DNA of 64,000 nt, from positions 167,980 to 231,979 of the forward strand of contig NZ_QGTS01000001.1 in assembly GCF_003182475.1 (NCBI RefSeq), in the 5' to 3' direction. This document shows, one piece after another, positions 36,226-62,024 of the stretch. The position numbers were made by a program, and so were the translations under genes. The stretch comes from Mangrovibacter plantisponsor. Lineage in GTDB: Bacteria; Pseudomonadota; Gammaproteobacteria; Enterobacterales; Enterobacteriaceae. The notes under the pieces were generated by a model that had not been told where the DNA came from, searched no databases, and saw nothing but the letters and a program-made list of their open reading frames with translations. Each line of letters opens with the position of its first letter. The first letter of the stretch is position 1.

Positions 36226-37353
36226 TTAAAATTCCACAATGACATTACCCTTCGGAATACTACAACACGACAGGATATAGCCCTCTTCAACATCCTCGTC
36301 GGTAATCCCGCCGTTATGGTTCATTTCAACTTCACCTTCGATACGTTTTACTTTACATGTTCCGCAAATGCCCATACCGCAGGCTTTAGGAATATGAAGC
36401 CCTAATTTAGCAGCTGCAGCATGGATAGTTTCACCAGGTGCGATTTGCACACTTTTACCTGTGCTCGCAAACGATACTTCAAGTAGTTCAGAGCTGGGTA
36501 AAGCTTCAGCCAGTTCTGCGGCTTCCTCCGCCCCTTGCACCACCTGCTCTTTAACAACGTCAGGGGTCGAGCCAAACGACTCTTCATGATAGCGAGACAT
36601 GTCAAAGCCAACATTTTGTAAGATGGCTTTTACCGCGCGCATGTAAGGTGTTGGCCCACAACAATAGATTTCACGTTCCAAAAAGTCCGGGGCAATCATT
36701 TGCAGCATTGCGTGAGTCAGGAAACCACTGTACCCACTCCAGTACTGACCAGATTCATAACGTTCACAAATAAGGCTGAGTTTAAAGTTGGAAATACGCG
36801 CGACCATATTTTCCAAATCACGTTTAAAAATAATATCTTGCGGTGTGCGGGCACTATGCACAAAAACCATATCAACATCGGCGTTAGTGTCGAAATACCA
36901 GCGAGCCATTGACATCATCGGGGTAATCCCTACCCCACCAGAGAGAAACAGCACTTTGTCACTGGGGAAGTCGATACAGTTGAACTGCCCCACCGGCCCA
37001 TGAACCGCAAGGTTTGAGCCTTCTGTCAAATTGTCATGCAGCCAGTTTGAAACCTGGCCTCCCGGCACACGCTTCACGGTAATAGAGAAGCTGTAGGGGA
37101 CAGAGGGTGAACTGGAAATGGTGTATGAACGAAACACTGGCTCGTTCTCTATCATCAGTTCCAGTGTGACAAACTGCCCGGGTTTGAAGAAGAACATCAC
37201 CGGTTGCTCAGCCATGAAGCAGAAGGTTTTTACATCCCATGTTTCCTGGATAACCTTGACGCACCGCACCGCATGGCGTCCATTACTCCAGGTCTGTGTC
37301 GTTACTGGCTCAAAGGCATTGGTATTCAGTACCGTGATATTTCTGTCTGTCAT
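36226..37353 (-). CDS. gbcB: Rieske-oxygenase reductase component (FNR-like FAD/NAD domain plus C-terminal plant-type 2Fe-2S ferredoxin), GbcB-like
   Basis: Start at Met22 behind AGGAAG. RSYSISS FAD motif, GGVGITP NAD motif, C-terminal CGMGICGTC ferredoxin motif. Divergent from the Rieske oxygenase gene. Confidence 0.7.
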   Translation of the reverse strand: MTDRNITVLNTNAFEPVTTQTWSNGRHAVRCVKVIQETWDVKTFCFMAEQPVMFFFKPGQFVTLELMIENEPVFRSYTISSSPSVPYSFSITVKRVPGGQVSNWLHDNLTEGSNLAVHGPVGQFNCIDFPSDKVLFLSGGVGITPMMSMARWYFDTNADVDMVFVHSARTPQDIIFKRDLENMVARISNFKLSLICERYESGQYWSGYSGFLTHAMLQMIAPDFLEREIYCCGPTPYMRAVKAILQNVGFDMSRYHEESFGSTPDVVKEQVVQGAEEAAELAEALPSSELLEVSFASTGKSVQIAPGETIHAAAAKLGLHIPKACGMGICGTCKVKRIEGEVEMNHNGGITDEDVEEGYILSCCSIPKGNVIVEF

Positions 37354-37722
37354 ACATACACTTCCTGTCGAAGGTAGATGGAAATAAACTGCCGATATCG
37401 ACTCTGGTGCAACCATTTACCTCTGAGCCGGTCATTTGATTTTCCGTTCAACCCTCCAACAACATTTATTTATTCGCGACATCGAAATATCTGAAAAAAC
37501 CACTTTTCAAATAAATTTTCTCTGCGCGTCTTTATCAGAGCGGTTTTATGTCGCAGTTAGAACATTGGCTAACGCTTAACAGGTGCAGCATGCATGCTGA
37601 CAGTTATCCATAACACCATTATGGACTTCCGGTAGACCGGGAGCTGGAGCTTTGTTGACAATCGGATGTGCCTGCAAAGGCACCGGACAATACAAAATGA
37701 ACAGCGCGAGAAGACCAACACT

Positions 37723-38988
37723 ATGAGCCACAACGATCTGCTGAATATAACTTGTGCAAGCCTTGTTGATGCGAGTGACCGAATGACTGAGTTGCTTGAA
37801 AAGCGCCAGCCGAACTACTCTCTGCCACAGGCTCTGTATAACGACCCAACACTGTTTCGCATTGATATGGAAGAAATTTTTCAGAAGGAGTGGTTGTTTG
37901 CAGGTATGAGTAGTGAGATTCCCAAAAAAGGCGACTATTTCACTCTGGAAATTGGGCAGAATCCTGTACTCGTAGTGCGTGATGCGGAAGGGAATATTAA
38001 TGCCTTCCACAATACTTGCCGCCATCGAGGTTCACGCTTGTGTTCACAGCATCGTGGAAAAGTTGCCAACCTGGTTTGCCCTTACCACCAGTGGACATAT
38101 GACCTCAAAGGTAACCTGCTGTTTGCCGGGACTGAGATGGGCCAGACCTTCGACATGAAACAACATGGTCTGAAAAAAGCGCAGTGTAAAACCGCCGGCG
38201 GTTTTATTTTTATCTGCCTTGCCGACACAGCTCCGTCTTCAGACTTTGACAGTTTTCTCGCGACGCTTGAAGAATACATGGCCCCTTACGATGTTGAGAA
38301 CACGAAACTTGCCGTGGAATCTCACATGTATGAGAAAGCCAACTGGAAACTGGTGATTGAAAATAATCGCGAATGTTACCACTGTGCGGGTAGCCACCCA
38401 GAACTGCTTAATACATTACTTGAGTGGGATGACACCAACGATCCCCGTGCACCGCAAACCTTCCTGGATTACTACAACCAACAGGCCGCAGATTGGGATG
38501 AGCAGGGTATCCCGCATCGCCATCAGAGCTTTGGTTTACGCAATCGTATTGTCCGTATGCCTCTGAAAGAAGGCGTAAAAGTTATGACCATTGATGGCGC
38601 TGAAGGGTGTAGTAAATTGCTGGGCCGTTTTACCAGCTACTTCCAGGGGTCGATGCGTATTCTGCATTTACCCAACTCCTGGAACCATATGCAAAGCGAC
38701 CATTTCATCGTTTTCCGTGTGTTGCCCATTTCAGCACAGGAAACTATGGTGACAACCAAGTGGTTTGTCCATAAAGATGCCGTGGAAGGGGTTGATTATG
38801 ATCCTGAGCGCCTGAGAAAAGTATGGGATGCCACTAACGACCAGGACCGCATTCTGGGTGAGGAAAACCAGCGTGGTATCAATTCAGTGGGTTATCAGCC
38901 CGGCCCTTACTCCGAAACTTATGAGTTTGGTGTGATTAACTTCATTGACTGGTATAGCGAAACTGTACTGAAAAACCTGAAAGAGTGA
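37723..38988 (+). CDS. gbcA: Rieske [2Fe-2S] non-heme-iron oxygenase, GbcA-like (glycine betaine demethylase oxygenase component)
   Basis: Rieske motif CRHRG..(17)..CPYHQW, mononuclear iron motif NRECYHC..H. ~420 aa as for GbcA. Start could alternatively be the ATG at 37666. Confidence 0.7.
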   Translation: MSHNDLLNITCASLVDASDRMTELLEKRQPNYSLPQALYNDPTLFRIDMEEIFQKEWLFAGMSSEIPKKGDYFTLEIGQNPVLVVRDAEGNINAFHNTCRHRGSRLCSQHRGKVANLVCPYHQWTYDLKGNLLFAGTEMGQTFDMKQHGLKKAQCKTAGGFIFICLADTAPSSDFDSFLATLEEYMAPYDVENTKLAVESHMYEKANWKLVIENNRECYHCAGSHPELLNTLLEWDDTNDPRAPQTFLDYYNQQAADWDEQGIPHRHQSFGLRNRIVRMPLKEGVKVMTIDGAEGCSKLLGRFTSYFQGSMRILHLPNSWNHMQSDHFIVFRVLPISAQETMVTTKWFVHKDAVEGVDYDPERLRKVWDATNDQDRILGEENQRGINSVGYQPGPYSETYEFGVINFIDWYSETVLKNLKE

Positions 38989-39192
38989 CACCTGCCTTCG
39001 GTGCCCATAAATATAAGATGCCAGGCATAACGCCTGGCATTTCTTTTGGCATTCAGTGTAATGACTAACCTCAGGTGGCAACACAGCGCCACCCCATATT
39101 CAGCACGCCAGGGCAACTCGCTGCCCTCATAAAAAAGCCAGCCTGGAAGCATAAACTCCAGGCTGGCGCGCAATAAACATCGTGCCGTTATC

Positions 39193-39966
39193 TTAGCGAA
39201 TCACACCTTCTTCAAGTAACAGGTCAAATATTGACTGAGCCATTTCAGCGACGGGTTTATCCTTCAGCACTTTTCCGCCTTCACTTTGTGACTTTGCGGT
39301 AGCAGCCCGGAAGCGGTCTGCCGCCGTTTTCGCTTTCACTACTTTCAGACGTTTTGGCTTTTTGCGTGCAGGTGCTTCTTCCCATTGCAGCATCGCCTCA
39401 TCAACAGCCTGTACGCCTTCATCATGAAAATCTATCTTTGCCCGGCTGGCAGGGCCATATGCACTTTGCCGTGGAGCTACTGCCGCCATATCTACACTGG
39501 CAATAAACGGCAGAGAAACCCTCAGTAAGCGGCGCTGGCCACGGGGTAATGCCTGCAACACCTCGGCTTCTGTACCAGTCATTCTGACGATTTCAGCCAC
39601 CCCAACCACCACCGGGATGCTGAGAGCTTCAGCCAGCAGAAACGGCAGCATACCAGATGACTCACCGCCTTCTGAGCGCACGCCAGTCAGAATAATATCT
39701 GGCTGTTTATGTTGCAGATAATGGCTCAGTACCTTAACGGCATCACCATTTTCATCCATCGACAGCACGCGCAAAGAGGAGATCCCCATCCCGGCGTAAC
39801 TGCGTAATGCTGAATCATATGGGTTGCCCGCATGCAGAACTTCCAACTGATCAACAGACAGACTCATTCCCATTTCTACAGCGCGCGCATCCTGTTCTGC
39901 ACGGCGGGCTCGTCCCGATTCCGGATGCTTACCTATCGAAACTAACGCAGTAATTTGGCAAGCCAT
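39193..39966 (-). CDS. etfB: electron transfer flavoprotein beta subunit (dgc-cluster type)
   Basis: Start at Met9 of the ORF. ETF-beta fold, atypical sequence as seen in the Pseudomonas dgcAB-etfBA clusters. Confidence 0.7.
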   Translation of the reverse strand: MACQITALVSIGKHPESGRARRAEQDARAVEMGMSLSVDQLEVLHAGNPYDSALRSYAGMGISSLRVLSMDENGDAVKVLSHYLQHKQPDIILTGVRSEGGESSGMLPFLLAEALSIPVVVGVAEIVRMTGTEAEVLQALPRGQRRLLRVSLPFIASVDMAAVAPRQSAYGPASRAKIDFHDEGVQAVDEAMLQWEEAPARKKPKRLKVVKAKTAADRFRAATAKSQSEGGKVLKDKPVAEMAQSIFDLLLEEGVIR

Positions 39967-39976
39967 ATTATGCTCT

Positions 39977-41215
39977 TCACGCTGCATCATTCAGTTCCTC
40001 TTTGCGCCAGGCCTGAGCAAGACGGGCCAGTTCAGCCATTATTTCGTCGCTATCCGCAATTACGCTTAATGACGCGCGTTTAACCATATCGCACCCCGGA
40101 TCAGTATTGATGGCAATCACCTTGTCGCACTGGCCAATACCCTGTAAATGCTGAATGGCACCTGAAATTCCGACAGCCAGATACACTCTGGCGGTAACCC
40201 AGGTCCCCGTTGCGCCAACCTGACGCAGACGTGGCATATGGCCGTTATCGACCGCTACACGGCTGGCACCTTCTGTCGCTCCTAATATTTCGGCTGTTTT
40301 ATGGAATTGCGACCAGTCGTTTACGCCATTACCTGCCGAGAGGATGAATTCAGCCTCAGCAAGCGGTACAGCCGCCGGGTCAACAGGTACCTGACCACAA
40401 TCCTTAATATGAACAGGTTTAACGCTCCACGGGCCAGGTACTACCGGGAGTGCTTCATGGCGTGTTTCATCTATGGGGTTAGCACACTCAGGTGCCAGCA
40501 ACAGCACCCGCGGGATCTGGCGCGTAATGTCCAGGGTTCCTCCTGCGGCACGGCCAGTGCATGTTTTCTCATCAACCCGCCAAACCTGAGTTGCCGGGCG
40601 CTCACCAACCCGGGCGGCAAAACGGCACCCTAATTCAAACCCGGCAGTCACACTATCTGGAAACAGCCAGAGAAGAGGAGCCAGTTCTTTTTCCACGGCG
40701 GCCAGTGCATTCGTGCAGTATTCCGGGCTGTAGCCCTGATACTGTTCACCAGTAAGATGAATAAGCCGGTCTACACCCGCAGTATCAAATGCCTCTTCTC
40801 GGTGTTCGCCAAAAACAATCGCCAGTACCGCCCCGGCTCCGCCCATGTGACGAATACGCTCGTGAGCCAGGCCAATGATATCTTTGTCATGGCTGGTCAG
40901 GCGGCCGCCGACCATATCGGGAACAACGGCAATATAATATTCTGGATTTTCAACACGATGCAGTGGCAGTTCAACCACCTTACTCACCGTAGCTGAACGC
41001 CGGCCTGCCGGATTCACAAAGGCACTAATATTCATCCGGTCAATTCGCTTAATACCGGCGGGGCCAATAAAACCCTGTGCATGTGGATTCTTACGCAGTA
41101 AACCTGTAGGGCCGCGAGTTTCCTGCCCAAACAAAGCCAACTCAGTATGCTGTGGGTGGAGCCGGTTACGCTGTATCCACTCAGCTCTGGGATCTCGACG
41201 AATAATTGAGTCCAT
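39977..41215 (-). CDS. etfA: electron transfer flavoprotein alpha subunit (with N-terminal extension)
   Basis: C-terminal FAD-binding region (..VAVGISGAIQHLQGIG..IAINTDP..). ATG overlaps the dgcB stop (ATGA). Confidence 0.8.
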   Translation of the reverse strand: MDSIIRRDPRAEWIQRNRLHPQHTELALFGQETRGPTGLLRKNPHAQGFIGPAGIKRIDRMNISAFVNPAGRRSATVSKVVELPLHRVENPEYYIAVVPDMVGGRLTSHDKDIIGLAHERIRHMGGAGAVLAIVFGEHREEAFDTAGVDRLIHLTGEQYQGYSPEYCTNALAAVEKELAPLLWLFPDSVTAGFELGCRFAARVGERPATQVWRVDEKTCTGRAAGGTLDITRQIPRVLLLAPECANPIDETRHEALPVVPGPWSVKPVHIKDCGQVPVDPAAVPLAEAEFILSAGNGVNDWSQFHKTAEILGATEGASRVAVDNGHMPRLRQVGATGTWVTARVYLAVGISGAIQHLQGIGQCDKVIAINTDPGCDMVKRASLSVIADSDEIMAELARLAQAWRKEELNDAA

Positions 41216-43173
41216 CAGATAACCTCCACTGCTATTTGTCGGTCACGGATCTTTTCGGGCAAAGTACTTTTCGTTTCGCTTAATGCATCAGCTACCAGCT
41301 CAGCAATGTCTTTCACTTCTGGATGCGGGCCAACCACGCCTTCAAGCATCGCCGTGCACTGTTGGCAACCTACGGCTATCATTTCTGCCCCTGTTTTTTT
41401 GGCATCATCCATACGCATATCGGCAATTCGCCGTTCTCCAGGGATATCGGTAATCGGTGCGCCGCCACCGCCGCCACAACAGCGTGAACGAAAGCCCGAA
41501 CGTTCCATCTCCACGAGTTTAATGCCCAATTCAGCAAGCAATTCACGGGGGGAATCATACTCACCGTTGTAACGCCCCAGATAACAGGGATCATGGTAGG
41601 TCACCTTGCCACCTTTATAATCTTTCAGTTCAAGCAACTGCGCTTTAACCAGCTCATTGATAAAGGTGGTGTGGTGCATAACTTCATAGCCGGGTTTTTC
41701 CTGTTCCGGGTAGAAATCAGGGTACTCGTTCTTTAAGCAATGGAAAGCATGGGGATCGGTGGTCACAATCCGGTCAAACTGATACTGATTCAGTGTCGCG
41801 ATATTGCTCTTTGCCAGGCGTTGAAATGTGGCATCATCGCCAAGTCGCCTTGCGACATCACCACTGTCGAGCTCTTCATCTCCCAATACGGCGAAATTCA
41901 CACCAGCAGCCCGCAGAATTTTTACGAAGGCACGCAAAATACGCTGGCTGCGCATATCGAAAGCGCCATCAGAGACCCAGAACAACACATCAGCCTGTTT
42001 AACATCTTTCATTAAAGGTAAATTCTGATCTGCAGCCCAATGAGTACGGTTGCGCGGATTAAAGCCATTTGGGTTATCGGTGACTATCAGGTTATCCAGA
42101 ACCTCTGCACCTTTTCCTGGCGTCTGTCCCTTTTCCATAGTCAGAAAACGGCGCATATCGACAATGGCATCAACATGCTCAATCATCATGGGGCATTCTT
42201 CAACGCAGGCCCGGCAAGTGGTACAGGACCACAGCGTCTCTTCGCTCACTAATCCGGCAGTTATTGGTTGATGTGGTGCCCCTTTCGCCTCGCCGATTTT
42301 CTTGCCTGGATATGGGCTGCCAGCAAACCGGGCATCCGAGCCACCGGCCATGCCAGTCACCATATCCTGAATCAATTTTTTAGGATTCAGGGGTTGCCCG
42401 GCAGCAAACGCCGGACACATAGCCTCACATTTCCCGCACTGGACACAGGCATCAAATCCCAGTAACTGGTTCCATTTAAAATCAACGGGTTTCTCTACCC
42501 CTAGTTTGGGCGCATCGAGATCAAGCCGCTTGAGCCCGGTGGAACGCCCACCACCAAAACGTTCAGAACGCCGATGAAATGCCAGATGCAAAGCCCCGGC
42601 AAAAGCATGCTTCATTGGCCCGCCCCAGGCCATACCCAGTACCAGTTCACCCAGCCCCCAAATGATACCAGCCAGCAGAATGGCGGAGAGTATCCAGCCA
42701 CCAGCGTTACCAAATACCGGGGAAACAGGTAGTGTTGTAATGAAAAACGTGATGGAAAATACCAACAGGCTCTTTGGCAGGCGCATCCACGGCCCACGGG
42801 ATAACCGGGAGGGTGGATGACGGCGGCGTTTATAAACGAACAGTGCGCCAATGAACATTAAGACAAGGGAAGCCGATAACGCGAGATCGACCAGATAGTT
42901 GCTGACACCAAACAGGTTGACCACCAGGATCAACACCATGGATAAAACAAACCCCCCTGCTGTCGCCACATGTGTTTTAGACATATATTTGTCGCGTGCG
43001 ACAACATGGTGTAAGTCCACCAGATAACGACGCGGCATCGCCAGCAGACCACGCAACAACGCGACCTTTTCAGGCTGGCCACGCCGCCAGAGCAGCGCTC
43101 GCCGGATCATACCTGTTACGGCCAGGATAACGGCGCAAATAAGTAACAGGGGGAGTAACCTCTCAAGTACCAT
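41215..43173 (-). CDS. dgcB: dimethylglycine demethylase Fe-S subunit DgcB (N-terminal membrane domain, 4Fe-4S cluster motifs, CCG domains)
   Basis: CxxCxxCxxxCP motifs (CVQCGKCEAMCP, CTTCRACVEECP) and heterodisulfide-reductase-like Cys-rich domains (..CCGGGGG..). 652 aa. Confidence 0.8.
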   Translation of the reverse strand: MVLERLLPLLLICAVILAVTGMIRRALLWRRGQPEKVALLRGLLAMPRRYLVDLHHVVARDKYMSKTHVATAGGFVLSMVLILVVNLFGVSNYLVDLALSASLVLMFIGALFVYKRRRHPPSRLSRGPWMRLPKSLLVFSITFFITTLPVSPVFGNAGGWILSAILLAGIIWGLGELVLGMAWGGPMKHAFAGALHLAFHRRSERFGGGRSTGLKRLDLDAPKLGVEKPVDFKWNQLLGFDACVQCGKCEAMCPAFAAGQPLNPKKLIQDMVTGMAGGSDARFAGSPYPGKKIGEAKGAPHQPITAGLVSEETLWSCTTCRACVEECPMMIEHVDAIVDMRRFLTMEKGQTPGKGAEVLDNLIVTDNPNGFNPRNRTHWAADQNLPLMKDVKQADVLFWVSDGAFDMRSQRILRAFVKILRAAGVNFAVLGDEELDSGDVARRLGDDATFQRLAKSNIATLNQYQFDRIVTTDPHAFHCLKNEYPDFYPEQEKPGYEVMHHTTFINELVKAQLLELKDYKGGKVTYHDPCYLGRYNGEYDSPRELLAELGIKLVEMERSGFRSRCCGGGGGAPITDIPGERRIADMRMDDAKKTGAEMIAVGCQQCTAMLEGVVGPHPEVKDIAELVADALSETKSTLPEKIRDRQIAVEVI

Positions 43174-50247: not shown

Positions 50248-50617
50248 TATGCTCTCCAGGGCTCAAGCCAGCTGTTCGTTAATCTCGTCATGAGAGAGCA
50301 TTATCGATGCCTGCACAAAATAATTAATGCCGGATAACGACGCATTCAGATATTAACTCGCCAGCAAATACGTTTTTCATCTTTTTTGTTTATCACCACC
50401 ACGCAGAGAACCACCGATTTACCCGGCAATTAACGCCCTCCCCCCCCTTTTCCGGGTATGTCGCAAATTGACATAGCCTGGACGCTCCCAAACATCATGG
50501 ATTTGTAGGCACTGGTTATCATCACCCAACATCAGAACCAACAGATGCCTTGATTCGCTGAATCCGTCAGCTCAAGCGCACCTTTGTTATTCGGCACGAA
50601 GGGGAAGGAGAGAAAGA

Positions 50618-51883
50618 ATGTTTGCGAAGAGCGATGATATCCAGAGCTTTGATAGCGAGCTTTGGGAAGCGATACAACATGAAGCCGTGCGTCAGGAAGA
50701 GCACATTGAACTTATCGCATCCGAGAATTATACCAGCCCGCGGGTTATGCAAGCTCAGGGAACAGTGCTCACCAATAAATACGCCGAAGGCTACCCTGCC
50801 AAACGTTATTACGGTGGTTGCGAATACGTCGATATCGTTGAGAAGCTCGCCATCGAACGCGCCTGCGCACTGTTTGGTGCCGACTACGCTAACGTTCAGC
50901 CACATTCAGGCTCTCAGGCAAATGCCGCTGTTTATATGGCGCTGTGCCAGCCAGGTGACACCATTCTTGGTATGAGCCTTGCTCATGGCGGGCATCTGAC
51001 ACATGGTGCTCATGTCAGTTTTTCCGGCAAAATCTACCACGCAGTCCAGTATGGTCTGAACCAGGAAACCGGTGAAATAGATTACGACCAGGTAGAAGCA
51101 CTGGCTCTTGAGCACAAACCGAAAATGATTGTGGCTGGTTTTTCTGCTTATTCCCGTATTGTCGACTGGGCAAAATTCCGCGAAATTGCTGATAAAGTCG
51201 GTGCCTGGTTATTTGTCGATATGGCCCACGTTGCCGGGCTGGTTGCCGCTGGCCTCTACCCGAATCCTTTGCCCTGGGCAGACGTAGTAACCACTACCAC
51301 ACATAAAACCCTGCGCGGCCCGCGTGGTGGATTAATTCTGGCTAAAGCTAACCCCGAGATTGAAAAGAAACTCAACGCGGCAGTGTTCCCGGGCGGACAA
51401 GGCGGCCCTTTGATGCACGTCATCGCAGCAAAGGCCGTTGCATTCAAAGAAGCGATGCAACCAGGCTATATCGAGTATCAAACGCAAGTTGTGAAAAATG
51501 CCCGCGCAATGGCCAGTGTGTTTATTGAACGTGGTTACGAGGTTGTTTCAGGTGGTACTGATAACCACTTGTTCCTGCTGAGCCTGATTAAACAAGGGCT
51601 GACCGGGAAAGCCGCCGACGCAGCATTAGGACGGGCCAATATTACCGTAAATAAAAATGCCGTTCCCAACGATCCGCAATCGCCGTTTGTAACATCTGGT
51701 TTGCGTATTGGTGCTCCTGTCATTACTACCCGTGGTTTCGATGAACAAAGCTGCCGCACGCTGAGTGGCTGGATTGCCGACATCCTGGATGTATTACATG
51801 ACGAAGTTCGACTGGAAGAAAAAATTACCCAGGTTAAACAACAGGTCCTCAGTCTGTGCGCTGACTACCCGGTTTACCGTTAA
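50618..51883 (+). CDS. glyA: serine hydroxymethyltransferase
   Basis: Near-identical motifs to E. coli GlyA (..[18 protein letters not shown].. PLP-lysine region ..[13 protein letters not shown]..). Confidence 0.9.
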
Positions 51884-51974: not shown

Positions 51975-53228
51975 ATGCAACGGTATTCTGGATTTGGGCT
52001 GCTTAAACACAGTCTGAGCTATCACGAGAACTGGCAGAAAGTATGGCGTAACCCTACACCAAAAAAGAAATATGACGTCATCATTATTGGCGGTGGCGGT
52101 CATGGTCTTTCTACCGCTTATTATCTTGCTAAAGAGCACGGTGTCACCAATATCGCGGTGCTCGAAAAAGGGCATTTAGGTGGTGGCAATATCTGCCGTA
52201 ATACCACCATTGTGCGCTCCAACTATCTGTGGGATGAATCTGCAGCACTGTACGAGCACTCAATGAAGTTATGGGAAGGGCTTTCTCAGGATCTGAACTA
52301 CAACCAGATGTTTTCCCAGCGTGGTGTCTACCACACTTGCCACACCTTGCAGGACCTGCGTACCAACGAACGTCTGGTTAACGCTAACCGCTTACAGGGC
52401 GTAGACAATGAAATGGTGTACGCAGACCAGCTGCAAAAAGAGATCCCTGCACTGGATTGCAGTAAAGATGCACGCTACCCGGTATTAGGGGCATCCGTAC
52501 AACGCCGGGGTGGTAACGCGCGTCATGACGCCGTAGCCTGGGGTTATGCCCGTGCCGCCGACAGTTTGGGTGTGGACCTTATCCAAAACTGTGAAGTCAT
52601 CGATATGGAAATCAGTGACGGTAAGATTACCGGTGTAAAAACCCGCAATCACGGCATCATCAAAGCCGACCGCGTTGGCTGTGTGACTGCAGGCAACTCT
52701 GGTGTTATGGCAAAAATGGCCGGTTTCGAATTACCCGTTGAATCACACCCCTTACAGGCACTGGTTTCCGAACCGATCAAACCTTTTCTTGATACCGTAC
52801 TGATGTCAAACCATGTCCATGGCTATATGAGCCAGTCAGATAAAGGCGATTTGGTTATCGGTGCCGGTATTGATGGCTGGGTGGGCTACGGCCAGCGTGG
52901 TTCCTACAGCATTATTGAACACACTATTCAGGCCATTGTTGAACTCTTCCCCTGCACCAGTCGCGTTCGTATGAACCGCCAGTGGGGCGGGATTGTCGAT
53001 ACTTGCCCGGATGCCAGCCCTATTCTCTCTGCCACCCCGGTCAGAAATTTATTCTTCAACTGTGGGTGGGGAACGGGTGGCTTTAAAGGTACTCCTGGGT
53101 CAGGCAATTTATTCGCCCATATGTTAGCGCACGGCAAAGCTCACCCAATCGCCGAACCGTTTTCTATGTACCGTTTTTATACCGGTGCGTTAGTTGATGA
53201 ACATGGCGCCGCTGGCGTCGCCCACTAA
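51975..53228 (+). CDS. soxB: heterotetrameric sarcosine oxidase beta subunit
   Basis: FAD motif DVIIIGGGGHGLSTAYYLA, 417 aa. Confidence 0.9.
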   Translation: MQRYSGFGLLKHSLSYHENWQKVWRNPTPKKKYDVIIIGGGGHGLSTAYYLAKEHGVTNIAVLEKGHLGGGNICRNTTIVRSNYLWDESAALYEHSMKLWEGLSQDLNYNQMFSQRGVYHTCHTLQDLRTNERLVNANRLQGVDNEMVYADQLQKEIPALDCSKDARYPVLGASVQRRGGNARHDAVAWGYARAADSLGVDLIQNCEVIDMEISDGKITGVKTRNHGIIKADRVGCVTAGNSGVMAKMAGFELPVESHPLQALVSEPIKPFLDTVLMSNHVHGYMSQSDKGDLVIGAGIDGWVGYGQRGSYSIIEHTIQAIVELFPCTSRVRMNRQWGGIVDTCPDASPILSATPVRNLFFNCGWGTGGFKGTPGSGNLFAHMLAHGKAHPIAEPFSMYRFYTGALVDEHGAAGVAH

Positions 53229-53238
53229 GGACTTAAGC

Positions 53239-53526
53239 ATGCTGCATATCTACTGTCCTCACTGTGGTGAGTATCGTGAAGAAGAAGAGTTTCATGCCAG
53301 AGGACAGGCGCATATTGCCCGCCCTGCTGACCCGGACAATTGCACTGACGAAGAATGGGGTGCTTACCTGTTCTTCCGCAAAAACCCCCGGGGACTGCAC
53401 CATGAACTCTGGGTTCATAGCGCCGGATGCCGCAAGTTCTTCAACTTGTCCAGAGACACCCAGACTTATGAAATAAAAGAAGTTTATAAGATTGGCGAAC
53501 AACCACAAGTGGTTGAGAAAGGTTAA
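53239..53526 (+). CDS. soxD: sarcosine oxidase delta subunit
   Basis: Start at Met16 of the ORF (MLHIYCPHCGEYREEEEF..), Cys4 zinc ribbon, ~95 aa. Confidence 0.8.
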   Translation: MLHIYCPHCGEYREEEEFHARGQAHIARPADPDNCTDEEWGAYLFFRKNPRGLHHELWVHSAGCRKFFNLSRDTQTYEIKEVYKIGEQPQVVEKG

Positions 53527-53538
53527 GGAGCGGAGAGT

Positions 53539-56500
53539 ATGAGCCAGAAAAATCGTCTGCCATCTGGTGGCAGAATAGACCGTTCCAGAGCACTGAAATT
53601 TATGTGGAATGGCCGCCAGTATACCGGATATGAAGGTGACACTGTTGCCTCTGCTCTGCTGGCAAACGGTGTGGATATTGTCGGGCGGAGTTTCAAATAC
53701 AGCCGCCCCCGAGGGATTGTCGCAGCCGGAGCAGAAGAGCCAAATGCTGTATTACAACTGGGTGCGACAGAAGCCACTCAGGTGCCAAATGTAAGAGCAA
53801 CCCAGCAGTCACTTTACAATGGGCTGGTATGCTCTGCGACAAACGGCTGGCCCAGCGTAGAATCAGACCTGATGGGGCTGGTAGGCAATATCGGTGGCAA
53901 AATGATGCCTCCGGGGTTCTACTATAAAACATTCATGTACCCACAATCCATGTGGCCAACTTACGAGAAATTCATTCGTAAAGCTGCCGGGCTGGGTCGT
54001 GCTCCGCGTGAAAAAGATCCCGACACCTACGATGTAATGAATCAGCACTGCGATGTGATGATTGTTGGTGGTGGGCCTGCAGGATTAATTGCTGCACTGG
54101 TTGCTGCACGCAGCGGCGCACGCGTGATTCTGGCAGACGAGCAAAATGAATTGGGCGGGCACCTGCTTTCCAGCCGGGAAACCATAGATGGTAAACCTGC
54201 CGCAGACTGGGTGGCAGACATTGTCTCTGAGTTATCCGGGCTGCCTGAAGTCACTATTCTGACGCGTTCTGTCGTGAACGGTTACCACGACCATAACTTC
54301 CTCACCATCAACGAGAATAAATCAGATTTCCAGGGCGACCGGGCTTTGTCGGGTAAAGTTCGCCAGCGTATGCACCGTGTCCGGGCTCACTGGGTTATTC
54401 TTGCGACTGGTGCCCAGGAACGCCCTCTGGTTTATGGTAACAACGATGTCCCTGGTTGCATGGTGGCATCAGCTATATCAACCTATATCAATCGCTATGG
54501 TGTTGTGCCTGGCAGCCAGTTGGTGCTGATGACCACTAACGATAGCGCTTACCAGACGGCGCTGGACTGGGCTGATGCCGGTCGTGAAGTCATTGCTGTC
54601 GTGGATACTCGCGCCAACCCACAGGGTGAGCTGGCGGCAATGGCGCGTAAACGCGGCATCCGGATTATTACCGGCAGTGCAGTGATTGATGTTCAGGGCA
54701 AAAAACGCGTCTCTGGTGTGACCATCGCCAGTATCGATAGCAAAGGTGATGCCGTTACCGGCAATATCTCTACACTGCGCTGTGATACTGTCGCCAGTTC
54801 AGGCGGCTGGAGCCCGGTGGTTCACCTCGCCTGCCATACCGGCAGCCGGCCGGTTTGGAACGATGAGGTGATTGGTTTTCTCCCCGGGCCTACCCGCCAA
54901 AAACAGATCACGGCGGGAGGAATTAATGGCCAATATGCGCTAAGCAGCGTGTTACTGGAAGGCATTGAAGCCGGGCAAAATGCCGCCGCTAATTTGGGGC
55001 TGACTCCTGGCGAAATAGTGCTTCCGGAGGTGAAAACCTGGCGCGAAGACAAACCCGCAGCCCTGTTTTACATTCCGCATACTAAGCCGATTAGCCGTGC
55101 TCCCAAGCAATTCGTTGACTATCAGAATGACGTGACTGCCGCTGGCATTGCTCTGGCGGCACGTGAAGGTTTTGAAGCCATTGAACACATTAAGCGTTAT
55201 ACCGCAATGGGCTTTGGGACCGACCAGGGGAAACTGGGTAACATCAATGGCATGGCCATTGCTGCCAGAGTCATGGGGAAAAGCATTCCTGAAACCGGCA
55301 CTACCGTTTTCCGCCCTAACTACACGCCAATAGCATTTGGCGCGATTAGCGGGCGTAACTGTGGGCCGCTGTTCGAACCGAAGCGCTTCACTGCCATGCA
55401 TAAATGGCACGTGCAACATAACGCAAAATTTGAAGATGTCGGCCAATGGAAACGCCCGTGGTATTACCCCAAACCAGGCGAAACCATGCAGCAGTCCCTC
55501 GACCGGGAATGCCGGGCTGTGCGTTCAGGCGTTGGCATTCTTGACGCTTCCACTCTCGGTAAAATCGATATTCAGGGTAAAGATGCCCGTGAGTTTCTCA
55601 GCCGTGTGTACACCAATGCATGGGCGAAGCTTGGCGTTGGGAAGTGCCGCTACGGGCTGATGTGTGGTGAAGGCGGCATGGTGTTTGACGATGGCGTCAC
55701 CTCCTGCCTGGCGGAGAACCACTTCCTGATGACCACCACCACCGGGGGCGCGGCTCATGTTTTAGAGTGGCTTGAACTCTACCACCAGACTGAATGGCCT
55801 GAATTAGAGGTATTTTTTACCAGCGTCACTGACCACTGGGCAACCATGACTATCTCCGGGCCGGACAGCCGGAAATTACTGTCAGAACTGTGCCTGGATA
55901 TCGATCTGGATAAAGACGTCTTCAAATTTATGGACTGGCGCGAAGGCACGGTGGCTGGTGTACCGGCTCGGGTGTTCCGTATTTCCTTCACGGGTGAACT
56001 GTCATTCGAAGTTAACGTTCAGGCAAACTACGGATTGCACGTTTGGGAAAAACTGTTTGAACACGGTGCCAAATACAACCTCACGCCCTATGGCACGGAA
56101 ACCATGCATATCTTGCGTGCCGAGAAAGGGTTCATCATTACGGGCCAGGATACCGATGGTTCAGTCACCCCGCTTGATCTCGGTATGGGGTGGTGTGTCG
56201 CAAATACCAAACCTTTCAGTTATATCGGCAAGCGCGGCATGGCCCGGGAAGATTGCGTTCGCGAACAGCGCAAGCAACTTGTTGGTCTGAAAACACGCGA
56301 CCCGATGACCGTTCTTCCGGAAGGGGCGCAGGCAGTGGCAGACCCGAAACAACCGGTTCCAATGGATCTGCTCGGGCATATCAGCTCAAGCTACTGGAGT
56401 GCCAACCTTAATCGCAGTATTGCGATGGGATTTATCAAAGGTGGCCTGGATCGTATGGGAGAAACCGTTTACTACCCGCTGGCTGATGGCCGGGTGATCG

Positions 56501-56559
56501 AAGCTGAAATTTGCAGCCCTATCTTTCTTGACCCGAAAGGAGAACGTCAGAATGTCTGA
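53539..56559 (+). CDS. soxA: sarcosine oxidase alpha subunit
   Basis: 1006 aa. N-terminal NAD/FAD-binding domain and C-terminal aminomethyltransferase (GcvT-like) folate-binding domain. Confidence 0.9.
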   Translation: MSQKNRLPSGGRIDRSRALKFMWNGRQYTGYEGDTVASALLANGVDIVGRSFKYSRPRGIVAAGAEEPNAVLQLGATEATQVPNVRATQQSLYNGLVCSATNGWPSVESDLMGLVGNIGGKMMPPGFYYKTFMYPQSMWPTYEKFIRKAAGLGRAPREKDPDTYDVMNQHCDVMIVGGGPAGLIAALVAARSGARVILADEQNELGGHLLSSRETIDGKPAADWVADIVSELSGLPEVTILTRSVVNGYHDHNFLTINENKSDFQGDRALSGKVRQRMHRVRAHWVILATGAQERPLVYGNNDVPGCMVASAISTYINRYGVVPGSQLVLMTTNDSAYQTALDWADAGREVIAVVDTRANPQGELAAMARKRGIRIITGSAVIDVQGKKRVSGVTIASIDSKGDAVTGNISTLRCDTVASSGGWSPVVHLACHTGSRPVWNDEVIGFLPGPTRQKQITAGGINGQYALSSVLLEGIEAGQNAAANLGLTPGEIVLPEVKTWREDKPAALFYIPHTKPISRAPKQFVDYQNDVTAAGIALAAREGFEAIEHIKRYTAMGFGTDQGKLGNINGMAIAARVMGKSIPETGTTVFRPNYTPIAFGAISGRNCGPLFEPKRFTAMHKWHVQHNAKFEDVGQWKRPWYYPKPGETMQQSLDRECRAVRSGVGILDASTLGKIDIQGKDAREFLSRVYTNAWAKLGVGKCRYGLMCGEGGMVFDDGVTSCLAENHFLMTTTTGGAAHVLEWLELYHQTEWPELEVFFTSVTDHWATMTISGPDSRKLLSELCLDIDLDKDVFKFMDWREGTVAGVPARVFRISFTGELSFEVNVQANYGLHVWEKLFEHGAKYNLTPYGTETMHILRAEKGFIITGQDTDGSVTPLDLGMGWCVANTKPFSYIGKRGMAREDCVREQRKQLVGLKTRDPMTVLPEGAQAVADPKQPVPMDLLGHISSSYWSANLNRSIAMGFIKGGLDRMGETVYYPLADGRVIEAEICSPIFLDPKGERQNV

Positions 56560-57226
56560 AACCATAATACCCGAAACCAAATCACGGGATACCGTCAGGC
56601 AGGTTGCGGTCATGAACCAGAAAGCCGAGGGCGCAGTGCGTGCTGAATCCCCCCTTTACCACGCAGAGCTGGGTAAGTTAGCCACACAGAGCCCCAGGGA
56701 AGGGGGGGTAACATTACGTGAACTGGGCTTACTTGGGCACTTAATTGTGCGCGGCTCTCAAAGCAACCAAAGCTTCATGCAAGGATGTGCTGAAGTGTTG
56801 GGTACCGCCCTGCCCGTTAAACCACTCACCAGCACAGAAGAAGGTGATATTTCTGTACGCTGGCTGAGCCCTGACGAGTGGCTGGTTGTGATGCCCATGA
56901 ACCAGATTTTCCCGGTGGAAGAAGCATTACGCGCCACCATTCAGGGGCATTATTCCGTTGTGAATGTCAGTGGCGGGCAAACCATCCTGCTGTTGTCAGG
57001 CAAAAACGCAATCGATGTCCTGAAGAAAAGTACCGTGCTGGATCTCCACCCTTCTGCGTTCCCGGTAGGTAAAGTTGCTGCATCTGTTTTTGCAAAAAGC
57101 AGCGCAATTATTCGCCGTACAGGAGAGGAGAGCTGGGAGCTGGTCATTCGCCGCAGTTTTGCTGATTACATCTGGCTGTGGGTACAGGATGCCAGCCACG
57201 AGTACGGACTGATTATGAATAAGTAA
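56552..57226 (+). CDS. soxG: sarcosine oxidase gamma subunit
   Basis: Start at Met9 of the ORF behind GGAGAA. ~224 aa. 8-nt overlap with the soxA end. Confidence 0.8.
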   Translation: MSETIIPETKSRDTVRQVAVMNQKAEGAVRAESPLYHAELGKLATQSPREGGVTLRELGLLGHLIVRGSQSNQSFMQGCAEVLGTALPVKPLTSTEEGDISVRWLSPDEWLVVMPMNQIFPVEEALRATIQGHYSVVNVSGGQTILLLSGKNAIDVLKKSTVLDLHPSAFPVGKVAASVFAKSSAIIRRTGEESWELVIRRSFADYIWLWVQDASHEYGLIMNK

Positions 57227-57299
57227 GTGAAGAAGGTGCTGGCAAAACGGTGTCTCGCTTTGCCAGCACACGGCTATTCTGTGTACCTGGAGAACCCCA

Positions 57300-58163
57300 A
57301 TGAGCTCTCTGCCTGATTCGTGGATTTTCACCGCAAGTTGCCCCAGCAAACTGGGAACGGTTGATGTCGTAACTCGCTTTATGGCTGAGTCCGGTCACTA
57401 CATTAATGAAATTCACTCCTTTGATGACCGGGTGAGTAAGCAATTTTTTATTCGCATCGCTTTCCAACCAGCCCCAAACTTCAGTACAGATAATTTCCAA
57501 CAATATTTTACGCCACGAATCACAACATTTGACATGCAGTGGCAATTAACACCGCCCCAACATCGTGAGCGGGTCGCTATTCTTGTTTCTAAATTTGACC
57601 ATTGCCTGAATGATTTACTTTTTCGCCATCGCACTGGCCAGTTGAATATCGATATCCCACTGATTATTTCCAACCATCCTGATCTGCGCCCACTTGCACA
57701 ATGGCACGGTATTCCTTATTACCACCTGCCTGTAACGAATGCGACACGGCCACAGCAGGAATCCCAAATTCTGGACTTACTGGAACAGTACAGCATCGAT
57801 CTCGTTGTTTTGGCCCGATATATGCAAGTCCTCTCACCTGTAATGTGCGAAAAACTTGATGGTAAGGCTATCAATATTCACCACTCACTCTTACCGGGAT
57901 TCAAGGGAGCAAGGCCTTACCACCAGGCATGGGAAAAAGGCGTAAAAATGGTCGGGGCAACAGCCCACTATGTAAATAATGACCTGGATGAAGGCCCCAT
58001 TATTACCCAGGGTATTCAAAGCGTTGATCATGCACTTTACCCGGATGATCTGATAAGCCGGGGGCAGGATATTGAGCGTGTAACCTTGTTTAATGCCGTG
58101 CGCTATCACGTTGAGAAGCGCGTGTTTCTCAGTGGCAAACGCACCGTGGTGTTCAGCCATTAA
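57300..58163 (+). CDS. purU: formyltetrahydrofolate deformylase
   Basis: ACT-like N-terminal domain plus formyltransferase core (..HHSLLPGFKGARPYHQA..). Confidence 0.85.
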   Translation: MSSLPDSWIFTASCPSKLGTVDVVTRFMAESGHYINEIHSFDDRVSKQFFIRIAFQPAPNFSTDNFQQYFTPRITTFDMQWQLTPPQHRERVAILVSKFDHCLNDLLFRHRTGQLNIDIPLIISNHPDLRPLAQWHGIPYYHLPVTNATRPQQESQILDLLEQYSIDLVVLARYMQVLSPVMCEKLDGKAINIHHSLLPGFKGARPYHQAWEKGVKMVGATAHYVNNDLDEGPIITQGIQSVDHALYPDDLISRGQDIERVTLFNAVRYHVEKRVFLSGKRTVVFSH

Positions 58164-58395
58164 CCCGTCTTTGCTGCCCTGATACACCGCAAGCCACTTA
58201 CCAGTGGCTGCTGTATCAGCGCAAATGTTGTGACCGATGTTGTTGTATTTCAAGAAAACTATGCAGACACAGACCATCCCTGGCAACAGGGGTAAACGGA
58301 CGAGACGCAGACCATGATGGTTATATAAAACAAAGCTGCCTGTATTTCTAAGGATAGCTTTTAACAAAAACAAGCAGATCGCGAGGAAAGAGAAT

Positions 58396-60051
58396 ATGGC
58401 GGATTCAAAAGATCCAATGACACCGGATGGTGAAGTTACACCATACGATACGGATTATCAGGTCGGTCAGGATAATATTGTGGTAAATGTCGGCCCGTTT
58501 GGACTGGATATTCATAACCGGGTTTTCCTTATTTCAGGGTTAGCCGTTATTGCCTTTATCGTATTAACGCTGGTATTTCAGAGTGATGTTGCTCCACTTT
58601 TTAAAGGTATGCTGAACTGGCTTACCACCAAACTGGACTGGTTTTTTCTGAGTGCGGGTAATATTTTCGTTGTTATCAGCCTGGCATTAATTTTTACCCC
58701 ACTTGGTAAAGTGCGGCTTGGCGGTACACTGGCTCGCCCGGATTACAGTTATATCACCTGGTTTTCGATGCTCTTTGCCGCAGGTATGGGCATTGGCCTG
58801 ATGTTTTATGGTGTTTCTGAACCGTTATCGCACTTCTCCAGTTCCTTTGGTGGTGTACATCTTGAAAATGGGGTCCGTACCGACTGGGCTCCGTTGAATG
58901 CGGCCGCTGGCTCTTCAGAGAATGCGATCCACCTTGCCATGGCCGCCACTATTTTCCACTGGGCACTGCACCCATGGGCTATTTACGCCGTGCTGGCTCT
59001 GGGACTGGCTTTATTCTCTTTTAATAAAGGTTTACCACTTACCATACGTTCTGTCTTCTACCCTCTTCTGGGTGATGCAGTCTGGGGATGGCCGGGGCAT
59101 ATCATCGATATTCTTGCCGTACTGGCAACCTTGTTCGGGCTTGCCACATCGCTGGGATTAGGTGCTTCACAGACCGCCTCCGGTCTTAATTTCCTGTTCG
59201 ACGTACCACTGGGAGAAACCACACAGATTATCCTGGTTGTCGTGATTACCGGTATTGCAACATTCTCGGTAGTTGCCGGGCTGGATGCAGGCGTTCGGCG
59301 GTTGTCTGAAGCGAATATGATCCTTGCCGGGATATTACTGCTGTTTATTATTGTGGTAGGGCCCACACTGGCTCTGTTTACTGGCTTTTTCTCTAACCTT
59401 GCTTCATATATAGAATACCTGCCTGCCCTGTCTAACCCGATTAACCGCGCCGACAGTAACTTCGCCGGTGGCTGGACTTCATTCTACTGGGCATGGTGGA
59501 TTTCATGGTCACCGTTTGTGGGTATGTTCATTGCGCGTATATCCCGTGGGCGTACAGTTCGTGAATTCATTATTTCTGTGTTACTGGTTCCATCACTGGC
59601 CTGTGTACTCTGGATGACCGTATTAGGTGGCACTGCTATTCATCAGTATTTTGTTGAAGGGTTCAAAGCCATTGCGGATGCTGCACTGCCGCTGCAACTG
59701 TTTACTATGCTGGATACATTGCCAATGGCAAAAATTACCTGTGTGGTGGCAATTATACTGGTCGTGGTGTTCTTTGTGACTTCAGCGGATTCCGGAACGC
59801 TGGTTATTGATATTATCGCGTCCGGGGGTAAAGTCGAATCCCCCACATCACAACGTGTATTCTGGTGTATTTTTGAAGGGCTGGTGGCAATTACGCTGAT
59901 TATGGGAGGCGGGCTGGATGCCTTGCAGGCCATGGTGGTATCGACAGGGCTTCCTTTTGCTATTGTTCTGCTGGTCGCTTCGGTGGCCGTGATAAAAGGC
60001 CTGGCAACGGAGCCGCGCCCCGGCAAACACGTCTCCGTAAATAGTAAATAG
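58396..60051 (+). CDS. BCCT-family (betaine/carnitine/choline) transporter
   Basis: 12 TM. BCCT signature region (..WTSFYWAWWISWSPFVGMFIARISRGRTVREF..). Confidence 0.85.
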   Translation: MADSKDPMTPDGEVTPYDTDYQVGQDNIVVNVGPFGLDIHNRVFLISGLAVIAFIVLTLVFQSDVAPLFKGMLNWLTTKLDWFFLSAGNIFVVISLALIFTPLGKVRLGGTLARPDYSYITWFSMLFAAGMGIGLMFYGVSEPLSHFSSSFGGVHLENGVRTDWAPLNAAAGSSENAIHLAMAATIFHWALHPWAIYAVLALGLALFSFNKGLPLTIRSVFYPLLGDAVWGWPGHIIDILAVLATLFGLATSLGLGASQTASGLNFLFDVPLGETTQIILVVVITGIATFSVVAGLDAGVRRLSEANMILAGILLLFIIVVGPTLALFTGFFSNLASYIEYLPALSNPINRADSNFAGGWTSFYWAWWISWSPFVGMFIARISRGRTVREFIISVLLVPSLACVLWMTVLGGTAIHQYFVEGFKAIADAALPLQLFTMLDTLPMAKITCVVAIILVVVFFVTSADSGTLVIDIIASGGKVESPTSQRVFWCIFEGLVAITLIMGGGLDALQAMVVSTGLPFAIVLLVASVAVIKGLATEPRPGKHVSVNSK

Positions 60052-62017: not shown

Positions 62018-62024
62018 GGTTTCT

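Follow-up and report, generated by a model that had tools for sequence, protein, structure and literature searches.

Evidence for a horizontally gained island predicted to encode aerobic glycine betaine catabolism in Mangrovibacter plantisponsor

Introduction

Enteric bacteria are textbook accumulators, not degraders, of glycine betaine (GB). How, then, did an apparently complete set of GB-degrading genes come to lie in an enterobacterial chromosome, and from which relatives? We took up this question for a 64,000-nucleotide stretch of the Mangrovibacter plantisponsor genome (assembly GCF_003182475.1, contig NZ_QGTS01000001.1, positions 167,980 to 231,979 of the forward strand), referred to here as the window, whose coordinates are used throughout. 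An initial annotation, made from the sequence without database searches, had described a contiguous Pseudomonas-type pathway from GB to pyruvate, about 24 kb long, in an enterobacterial-type backbone, and had suggested horizontal acquisition. We conclude, with a probability of roughly 0.85, that this locus is a ~28-kb chromosomal island of M. plantisponsor that was gained horizontally and encodes an aerobic GB catabolic pathway. The enterobacterial backbone was borne out by exact protein matches to M. plantisponsor (PWW126xx), a member of the Enterobacteriaceae.

The catabolic genes are contiguous and intact

Mapping of open reading frames (ORFs) and profile searches against NCBIfam and Pfam showed that all of the pathway genes named by the initial annotation are present, contiguous and uninterrupted across 36,226-60,051. 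With GbcAB, DgcAB, SoxBDAG, GlyA, SdaB and PurU identified by homology, these genes would make up the complete GB-to-pyruvate set that had been proposed. The features of the locus are listed below, with gene starts and ends refined from public annotations of identical sequence.

34,711-35,490, minus strand: DUF3750 gene, left backbone anchor (Pfam PF12570)
35,722-63,730, no strand: whole acquired segment, ~28.0 kb (blastn homology endpoints against three island-less assemblies)
35,722-36,225, no strand: left spacer, non-coding, unique to the M. plantisponsor genome (unmatched in MFB070, CE90 and the other islands)
36,226-37,353, minus strand: gbcB, GB monooxygenase reductase, FNR-like domain plus plant-type 2Fe-2S ferredoxin (NF058606)
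37,549-37,575, plus strand: candidate GbdR-type operator TGTCGC-N15-TAACGC, 173 bp upstream of gbcA
37,723-38,988, plus strand: gbcA, Rieske-type GB monooxygenase oxygenase subunit (NF058607)
39,018-39,167, no strand: convergent terminator hairpins in the gbcA/etfB gap (stems of 10 and 12 bp)
39,193-39,987, minus strand: etfB, dedicated electron-transfer flavoprotein beta subunit (NF051844)
39,977-41,215, minus strand: etfA, electron-transfer flavoprotein alpha subunit, long 412-aa form (NF051845)
41,215-43,173, minus strand: dgcB, Fe-S subunit of dimethylglycine demethylase (Pfam DUF3483, Fer4 and CCG)
43,319-45,382, minus strand: dgcA, OYE-like flavoprotein subunit of dimethylglycine demethylase (similarity to Vibrio natriegens DgcA)
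45,481-46,014, minus strand: DUF5943 small protein, conserved dgcAB partner (PF19367)
46,055-47,173, minus strand: Peptidase_M19 (membrane dipeptidase-like), first gene of the dgc operon (PF01244)
47,401-48,549, minus strand: gbdR, AraC/DJ-1 (GATase1-like) activator (NF052371)
48,871-50,247, minus strand: sdaB, L-serine ammonia-lyase (TIGR00720)
50,459-50,485, plus strand: candidate GbdR/SouR-type operator TGTCGC-N15-GGACGC, 158 bp upstream of glyA
50,618-51,883, plus strand: glyA, island-specific serine hydroxymethyltransferase paralogue (NF000586)
51,975-53,228, plus strand: soxB, heterotetrameric sarcosine oxidase subunit (TIGR01373)
53,239-53,526, plus strand: soxD, heterotetrameric sarcosine oxidase subunit (TIGR01374)
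53,539-56,559, plus strand: soxA, heterotetrameric sarcosine oxidase subunit (TIGR01372)
56,552-57,226, plus strand: soxG, heterotetrameric sarcosine oxidase subunit (TIGR01375)
57,300-58,163, plus strand: purU, formyltetrahydrofolate deformylase, recycles tetrahydrofolate (NF004684, TIGR00655)
58,396-60,051, plus strand: BCCT-family transporter, presumed importer of GB and dimethylglycine (TIGR00842)
60,134-62,786, plus strand: DUF294 protein (cNMP-binding, CBS and nucleotidyltransferase) and DnaQ-like 3'-5' exonuclease (Pfam; NF006602, 321 bits)
62,847-63,395, minus strand: Flavodoxin_2 / NAD(P)H oxidoreductase, in the insert, outside the cassette common to CE90 (Pfam PF02525)
63,844-64,000, plus strand: first part of the zf-dskA_traR (ybiI-like) gene, which runs past the window end (whole gene at L001 20,306-20,572); right backbone anchor (91.6% identical to MFB070)

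Profile scores exceeded the model cut-offs for GbcB (700 bits against 500, NCBIfam equivalog NF058606), GbcA (716.4 against 670, equivalog NF058607), EtfB (384 against 350, NF051844), EtfA (649 against 600, NF051845), GbdR (588 against 480, NF052371), SdaB (697 against 345, TIGR00720), GlyA (655 against 335, NF000586), SoxB (689 against 529, TIGR01373), SoxD (125 against 116.5, TIGR01374), SoxA (1466 against 1164, TIGR01372) and PurU (374 against 223 for NF004684; 304 against 286 for TIGR00655). SoxG was marginal at 143.6 bits against 143.95 (TIGR01375), scored on an over-long ORF. NCBIfam holds no dedicated model for DgcA or DgcB; over 687 aa, DgcA shares 88% identity with the DgcA of V. natriegens, which has been validated genetically, and DgcB carries two CxxCxxCxxxC (4Fe-4S) motifs and is 73-84% identical to its orthologues in Enterobacterales, Oceanospirillaceae and Vibrio. 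The small hypothetical gene and membrane dipeptidase that the initial annotation had likened to the Pseudomonas dgc locus proved to be DUF5943 and Peptidase_M19, in the same order as there; the Peptidase_M19 protein is 75-91% identical to its orthologues, and the DUF5943 gene keeps its position in all related islands.

The residues expected of the two GB monooxygenase components are in place. In GbcA the Rieske motif CRH-x17-CPYH is intact, and its H-x4-H pair, H220 and H225, is predicted to be of the kind that binds mononuclear iron; in GbcB the RxYT, GxGxxP and C-x4-C-x2-C-x29-C motifs (flavin, NAD and 2Fe-2S) are present. A carnitine monooxygenase of the CntAB (YeaW/YeaX) type was considered for this pair and is disfavoured: CntA (6Y8J) aligns over residues 31-231 only (E = 1.8e-31). 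Both hairpins between gbcA and etfB are strong, and a clean T run follows only the 12-bp stem, at 39,137-39,167.

An empty site defines the insert

Three other assemblies encode an identical DUF3750 protein: Mangrovibacter sp. MFB070 (GCA_000705335.1), DRR526049 (a Logan assembly) and GCA_040777105.1. In MFB070 and DRR526049 the DUF3750 and zf-dskA_traR (ybiI-like) genes are direct neighbours and the island is missing; the GCA_040777105.1 contig has the same empty-site sequence. By blastn, the left flank of the window is 97.6-98.1% identical at the nucleotide level to the three assemblies up to ~35,670, with a gapped continuation to ~35,721, and homology to the island-less assemblies restarts on the right at 63,731, at 91.5% identity; the insert therefore measures ~28.0 kb (35,722-63,730). 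In M. plantisponsor it replaces ~520 bp of the intergenic DNA of MFB070. Thus the ~24 kb of the initial annotation described the contiguous pathway correctly but fell short of the real insert, which also holds the DUF294, DnaQ-like exonuclease and Flavodoxin_2 genes and two unique spacers. The left spacer (35,722-36,225) contains neither repeats nor a Pfam-bearing ORF, and Rfam searches returned nothing at the junctions or within the island.

Distribution within the genus was judged by membership in protein clusters at 90% identity, a measure that could miss diverged copies, and by this measure the island proteins set M. plantisponsor apart. None of the clusters of SoxA, SdaB, EtfA, GbdR, GlyA, DUF294, BCCT, GbcA, GbcB and Flavodoxin_2 (10 in all) contained another Mangrovibacter, so that the conservation throughout the genus that would have pointed to vertical inheritance was not seen; those of the backbone dihydropyrimidinase and methyl-accepting chemotaxis protein (MCP) both contained M. 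phragmitis and M. yixingensis, and MFB070 and SLW1 each turned up in one or both. The SdaB and Flavodoxin_2 clusters held M. plantisponsor only, and those of SoxA and BCCT were common to the window and CE90 proteins. The island had no homologue in 5,426 E. coli genomes. The empty site with its ~98% identical flanks, the lack of island proteins from the clusters of other Mangrovibacter and the presence of the same cassette at other sites elsewhere (see below) together support horizontal acquisition, as had been suggested initially.

Carriage on a plasmid was also considered and rejected: no near match to the island was found among 72,556 plasmids (PLSDB), and a tblastn search with DgcA returned no enterobacterial plasmid, the best matches being replicons of Halomonas, Burkholderia and Ralstonia.

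Two further observations concern the same locus. A ~175-bp repeat (72-86% identity) adjoins zf-dskA_traR in M. plantisponsor just past the window end, at L001 20,594-20,766, and occurs twice in the MFB070 locus (3,616-3,790 and 8,422-8,587), at the edge of the variable zone; it may be a small repeat involved in rearrangements. Farther to the left, MFB070 has ~256 bp in place of the MCP and SBP_bac_1 genes (window 25,424-28,366), and GCA_040777105.1 breaks at the left junction of this replacement. As the MCP is conserved at >=90% in M. yixingensis, M. phragmitis and SLW1, the two genes were apparently deleted in the lineage of MFB070, an event whose polarity is the reverse of that of the island.

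The nearest relatives are enterobacterial and oceanospirillal

Relatives of the island were collected by a GbdR-based genome scan and tblastn synteny. Pectobacteriaceae bacterium CE90, whose GbdR is 89% identical, matches the window at 77-83% nucleotide identity across exactly 36,226-62,761, the homology beginning at the gbcB stop codon and running to 62,761; across six enterobacterial islands, homology likewise ends at the gbcB stop codon. Candidatus Pantoea borealis UBA6694 has the same gene order at 72-96% protein identity, and Rosenbergiella sp. YN46 and a Pluralibacter metagenome-assembled genome (MAG) have related layouts. Outside the Enterobacterales, related clusters occur in Marinobacterium (70-93% protein identity), other Oceanospirillaceae and Vibrio, and in Pseudomonas, where the identities are 60-62% for GbdR, 65-70% for SdaB and 82% for DgcA. 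The surroundings vary from genome to genome. In a Pantoea sp. A4-like scaffold the cassette adjoins gcvA/ygdD/rlmM; in a Serratia-like genome it adjoins cynTS and has a MazE/PIN pair inside; P. gergoviae has extra genes between gbcA and etfB; and in Marinobacterium lutimaris gbcBA adjoins betIBA-choXWV. The DUF294 and DnaQ-like exonuclease pair lies directly downstream of the BCCT gene in Mangrovibacter, CE90 and Rosenbergiella sp. YN46 (in the relatives at L086 16,519-19,165 and L002 3,755-6,386).

The best 120 GbcA matches ran from P. gergoviae (88%) and Pantoea (85%) through Marinobacterium, Marinomonas and Amphritea (77-81%, Marinobacterium itself at 80%) to Vibrio (74-76%), and no Pseudomonas was among these 120, which reached down to 74% identity. 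In a neighbour-joining tree of SdaB plus GbdR (845 columns, 100 bootstraps), the window grouped with CE90 (bootstrap 87) and then with Ca. P. borealis (84), the clade that adds Rosenbergiella, Marinobacterium and Oceanospirillaceae received 100, and Vibrio and Pseudomonas fell outside it. The affinity of GbdR, SdaB and DgcA, as judged from these comparisons, thus runs from other Enterobacterales to Marinobacterium/Oceanospirillaceae and then to Vibrio, with Pseudomonas well below. Island phylogeny and synteny disagree with host taxonomy: the island groups with those of Pectobacteriaceae, Erwiniaceae and Oceanospirillales, to the exclusion of Vibrio and Pseudomonas, and its insertion sites differ from family to family. 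The label "Pseudomonas-type" accordingly holds for the enzymology but fails for ancestry and layout: Enterobacterales, Marinobacterium and Vibrio are nearer, and the genes are compact.

By homology and gene order, the gbcB-to-exonuclease cassette (36,226-62,761) belongs to a lineage that circulates in Enterobacterales, in Pluralibacter, Pantoea, Erwinia, Rosenbergiella, Pectobacteriaceae and a Serratia-like genome. Outside the enterics it is closest to Oceanospirillales such as Marinobacterium, and not to Pseudomonas. The closest relatives that we found reach at most ~83% nucleotide identity, or 90% for GbcA in a contig from a JGI metagenome; no direct donor has been sampled. A bolder proposal is that the module is a discrete cassette, ending at gene ends, that has landed at four or more unrelated chromosomal sites in different enterobacterial families without integrase, insertion sequence (IS), tRNA or terminal repeats; that it spreads tracelessly, for instance by recombination in variable zones after transformation or transduction; and that the DUF294-exonuclease pair is an accessory of the BCCT transporter or of transfer instead of a passenger. 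Taken together, these parts make an unlikely, though not fanciful, whole.

A separate observation concerns CE90 itself, where the gene calls split the etfB orthologue into two ORFs, 119 and 152 aa long (L087 15,398-16,193). This suggests a frameshift or possible pseudogene, and the dgc step of CE90 may be impaired.

Proposed pathway and its control

Substrate, flux, regulation and growth phenotype are predicted here from homology. The BCCT transporter would import GB and possibly dimethylglycine (DMG). GbcA, the Rieske oxygenase, and GbcB, its NADH-dependent reductase, would use O2 to take the first methyl group off GB, giving DMG and formaldehyde; DgcAB, passing electrons to its own EtfAB, would convert DMG to sarcosine; and SoxBDAG would yield glycine and 5,10-methylene-tetrahydrofolate (methylene-THF) from sarcosine. 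The island GlyA would then make serine from glycine and methylene-THF, SdaB would turn serine into pyruvate and ammonium, and PurU would take formate off 10-formyl-THF and so regenerate THF. In V. natriegens, deletion of gbcA abolishes growth on GB only, and deletion of dgcA abolishes growth on both GB and DMG (PMC12093977).

GbdR, an activator of the AraC/DJ-1 type, would switch the operons on with GB or DMG, probably acting via hexamer-N15-hexamer sites upstream of gbcA and of glyA-sox. Sites of this form are described for CdhR, GbdR and SouR (PMC5806209). Across Mangrovibacter, CE90, Ca. Pantoea borealis and a Vibrio MAG, conservation of the sdaB-glyA intergenic region is highest at the TATGTCGCAAAT(T/C)GACAT part of the glyA-side candidate, and the second hexamer is only partly conserved. 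Window-wide, the pattern occurs 4 times against 2.1 expected, which is not significant, and the two candidate operators are accordingly put forward on their placement and, at glyA, cross-genus conservation, which are suggestive. A reading of the sites as an ATGTC-N7-GACAT palindrome was rejected (4 matches against 1.8 expected, only one of them in a promoter), and a de novo search for a motif shared by five island promoters returned weak k-mers only.

Alternative explanations

Several findings weigh against the horizontal gain of a GB pathway at this locus, and they are set out together here. Composition gives almost no support for foreignness. The island has a GC content of 50.2%, the local flanks 52.7% and the whole genome 50.43%, and the tetranucleotide correlation between island and backbone is 0.948, against 0.950 between backbone halves; a shift shows only in GC at third codon positions (GC3), which is 0.50 in the island and 0.57 in the local flanks (Mann-Whitney p = 2e-5). 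The GC and k-mer comparison that the initial annotation had recommended was therefore uninformative, and its premise that a uniform signature would speak for vertical inheritance would have misled, the signature being uniform despite acquisition. Such a composition would fit if the donor, probably another enterobacterium, had a similar one, or if the island had long resided in genomes of that kind. The usual marks of mobility are missing as well: we found no tRNA at the junctions or inside the island, no integrase or transposase ORF among the protein-family scans of the window, no flanking direct repeats at the junctions, and no conserved non-coding terminus downstream of gbcB among the six enterobacterial islands. 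On the right side of zf-dskA_traR the genomes diverge once more, which makes the locus a variable zone and the event perhaps other than a simple insertion. The possibility of diverged copies outside the 90% clusters, noted above, belongs here too. On the functional side, the BCCT transporter scores above its family cut-off (452 against 407.55 bits, TIGR00842) but under that of the betaine_BCCT equivalog (494 against 650), which leaves its substrate uncertain; the island carries no formaldehyde-detoxification gene; a search upstream of the dgc operon yielded no candidate operator; and GB catabolism goes unmentioned in a 2025 review of seven Mangrovibacter genomes, which names BetA, BetB, ProP and ProV. 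The same review gives a GC content of 50.43% for the MSSRF40T genome and notes that MFB070 may belong to M. plantisponsor. Our literature search returned no report of GB catabolism in Mangrovibacter.

Might the island instead be ancestral to Mangrovibacter, its absence from MFB070 and other lineages a loss and the empty site a deletion scar? A composition indistinguishable from the backbone and the lack of mobility genes and target-site duplications speak for this history, the locus is a variable zone, and MFB070 has demonstrably lost the MCP and solute-binding protein (SBP) genes at 25,424-28,366 that other species kept. Loss would, however, have to account for three independent assemblies that share one empty site, including the ~520 bp missing from M. 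plantisponsor, and for the fact that 0 of 10 island-protein clusters contain M. phragmitis, M. yixingensis, SLW1 or MFB070 when backbone clusters do. The island is wholly absent from E. coli, and it groups with those of other families and of Oceanospirillales, at different loci, which is unlike vertical descent in Enterobacteriaceae. We judge ancestral presence very improbable. Direct arrival from Pseudomonas or Burkholderia fares worse still. The pathway was first defined in P. aeruginosa (PMC12093977), the matched NCBIfam GbdR model was built for Pseudomonas, and both the M19-DUF5943-dgcAB order and the sdaB-gbdR adjacency recur there. Yet the GbdR, SdaB and DgcA identities given above make Pseudomonas the most distant of the named relatives, the corresponding values being 80-93% in Enterobacterales and 72-91% in Marinobacterium/Oceanospirillaceae; Pseudomonas is missing from the best 120 GbcA matches; its clade splits off with 100% bootstrap; and Burkholderia and Ralstonia DgcA are only ~63-64% identical. 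As a proximate donor, either genus is effectively refuted.

A different doubt concerns the substrate, since the Rieske enzyme, or the island with it, could serve mainly another quaternary amine: proline betaine (stachydrine, by a Stc2-like enzyme), carnitine (by a CntA-like enzyme), or DMG and sarcosine only. The nearest PDB entries to GbcA, matched over full length at E values of 1e-112 to 1e-122, are 3N0Q, 4QUP and the stachydrine demethylase 3VCA, all uncharacterised or stachydrine-type demethylases, and on this ground its specificity may be shifted towards another betaine. V. fluvialis, with a contiguous cluster, was reported to grow only on DMG and sarcosine (PMC12093977), and the BCCT score under the GB-uptake cut-off points the same way. 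Set against this, GbcA (716 against 670) and, far more clearly, GbcB exceed the cut-offs of their own equivalogs, and CntA aligned over the Rieske domain alone, at 1e-31. The accompanying dgcAB, soxBDAG, glyA, sdaB and purU genes and the GbdR-equivalog regulator fit GB, gbcBA adjoins betIBA-choXWV in Marinobacterium lutimaris, and V. natriegens needs gbcA for growth on GB specifically. We therefore regard another main substrate as rather improbable, less so than ancestral presence, and retain horizontal gain of a GB pathway as our reading of the locus.

Flanking genes

The flanks hold sialic-acid-like genes and an orphan proX; an exporter of the ABC/MFP/OMF type and a two-component system; a reductive pyrimidine catabolism cluster; an ABC importer and a dapF paralogue; an MCP gene with a solute-binding protein gene; an RtcR-Band7-RlaP module; and the DUF3750 gene. 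The pyrimidine cluster (13,615-21,169) comprises a beta-ureidopropionase-like amidohydrolase, dihydropyrimidinase, PreA, PreT, RutR and an NMT1-type SBP, and is ~78% identical at the nucleotide level to a cluster on plasmids of Klebsiella quasipneumoniae and K. pneumoniae, some of them conjugative; its occurrence on Klebsiella plasmids means that this block of the "backbone" is itself mobile among enterics. The orphan ProX-type GB/proline-binding protein (4,530-5,579) scores 539 bits against an E. coli-type ProX model and is 65-70% identical to enteric ProX by tblastn; proV and proW are not adjacent to its gene, which lies ~30 kb from the island. At 29,639-34,627, rtcR (833 bits) is divergent not from rtcBA but from a set encoding Band_7/SPFH, RlaP (an RNA-repair nucleotidyltransferase of the Pol-beta family) and DUF817, a non-canonical RtcR-associated module that is conserved in MFB070. 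The low-GC3 block at 269-4,052 encodes a sodium/solute symporter, a BNR-repeat (sialidase-like) protein, a protein of the YhcH/N-acetylneuraminate anomerase family and an SDR, and is possibly a sialic-acid-related utilisation module.

Discussion

In P. aeruginosa the GB genes are scattered across PA5372-PA5421, and the Mangrovibacter layout is compact. The P. aeruginosa loci are gbcAB PA5410-11, dgcAB PA5398-99, soxBDAG PA5416-19 and gbdR PA5380, together with glyA1, sdaB and purU2; the GB catabolic regulon of that species is the one reportedly described by Wargo et al. in 2008. The two systems have in common homologous enzymology at each step, the GbdR equivalog, the M19-DUF5943-dgcAB-etfBA order and the adjacency of sdaB and gbdR, but identity is much lower (GbdR ~61%, SdaB 65-70%), and the Mangrovibacter island lacks the souR, cbcXWV and fdhA of Pseudomonas and carries a BCCT transporter where Pseudomonas uses the ABC importer. 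In Pseudomonas the set extends over ~50 genes and is interspersed with carnitine and choline genes; its inheritance appears to be vertical (PMC12093977).

Much closer parallels have been published for Vibrio (V. natriegens, V. fluvialis), Pantoea and Serratia, where Thomas et al. (2025) already noted BCCT-containing clusters of this type in Pantoea and Serratia (PMC12093977). These clusters share gbcA, gbcB, pepD(M19)-hp(DUF5943)-dgcAB-etfAB(fixAB), glyA-soxBDAG-purU, sdaB, a GlxA/GbdR-type regulator and BCCT with the island, and their patchy distribution is consistent with horizontal gene transfer (PMC12093977). The Serratia-like relative has the toxin-antitoxin pair described in the same work (PMC12093977). 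The Mangrovibacter island differs in its host genus, not reported before, in its strain-level empty site, in carrying the DUF294-exonuclease pair and Flavodoxin_2, and in that its GbcA, GbdR and SdaB are closer to those of Marinobacterium/Oceanospirillaceae than to those of Vibrio; and whereas the V. fluvialis and V. ruber clusters are flanked by integrases or IS elements (PMC12093977), it is not. The CE90 island (CP129114.1, ~1.17-1.20 Mb) has an identical order from gbcB to the exonuclease but sits between srmB/yfiC/nadB and a tRNA-synthetase-like gene plus ung, is without Flavodoxin_2, and has its etfB called as two ORFs. A precedent for inter-order transfer of sarcosine oxidase and GB catabolism into a gammaproteobacterium is the compatible-solute catabolism island of Colwellia psychrerythraea 34H, which is reported to be 37 kb long, duplicated and detectable by its abnormally high GC (PMC3691474); the Mangrovibacter island, by contrast, is single-copy in the window and compositionally cryptic.

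As the principle is already in print for Vibrio, Pantoea and Serratia, the advance made here is incremental throughout. It consists of a new host genus, an empty site at the level of strains, by which the limits of the insert are set, and the extension of the cassette through the DUF294-exonuclease pair, moving without recognisable mobility functions. The case also offers a caution for genome scans: an island may be invisible to GC and k-mer statistics and bear no classical hallmarks of mobility, and yet comparative genomics proves its acquisition.

For the organism, whose type strain came from the roots of mangrove-associated Porteresia coarctata, the island would let the M. plantisponsor lineage use GB, DMG and sarcosine as sources of carbon, nitrogen and energy, and, with betAB present genus-wide, the use of choline might follow too. 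The genomes with and without the island, alike in their ~98% identical flanks, provide a natural, isogenic-like contrast for this phenotype.

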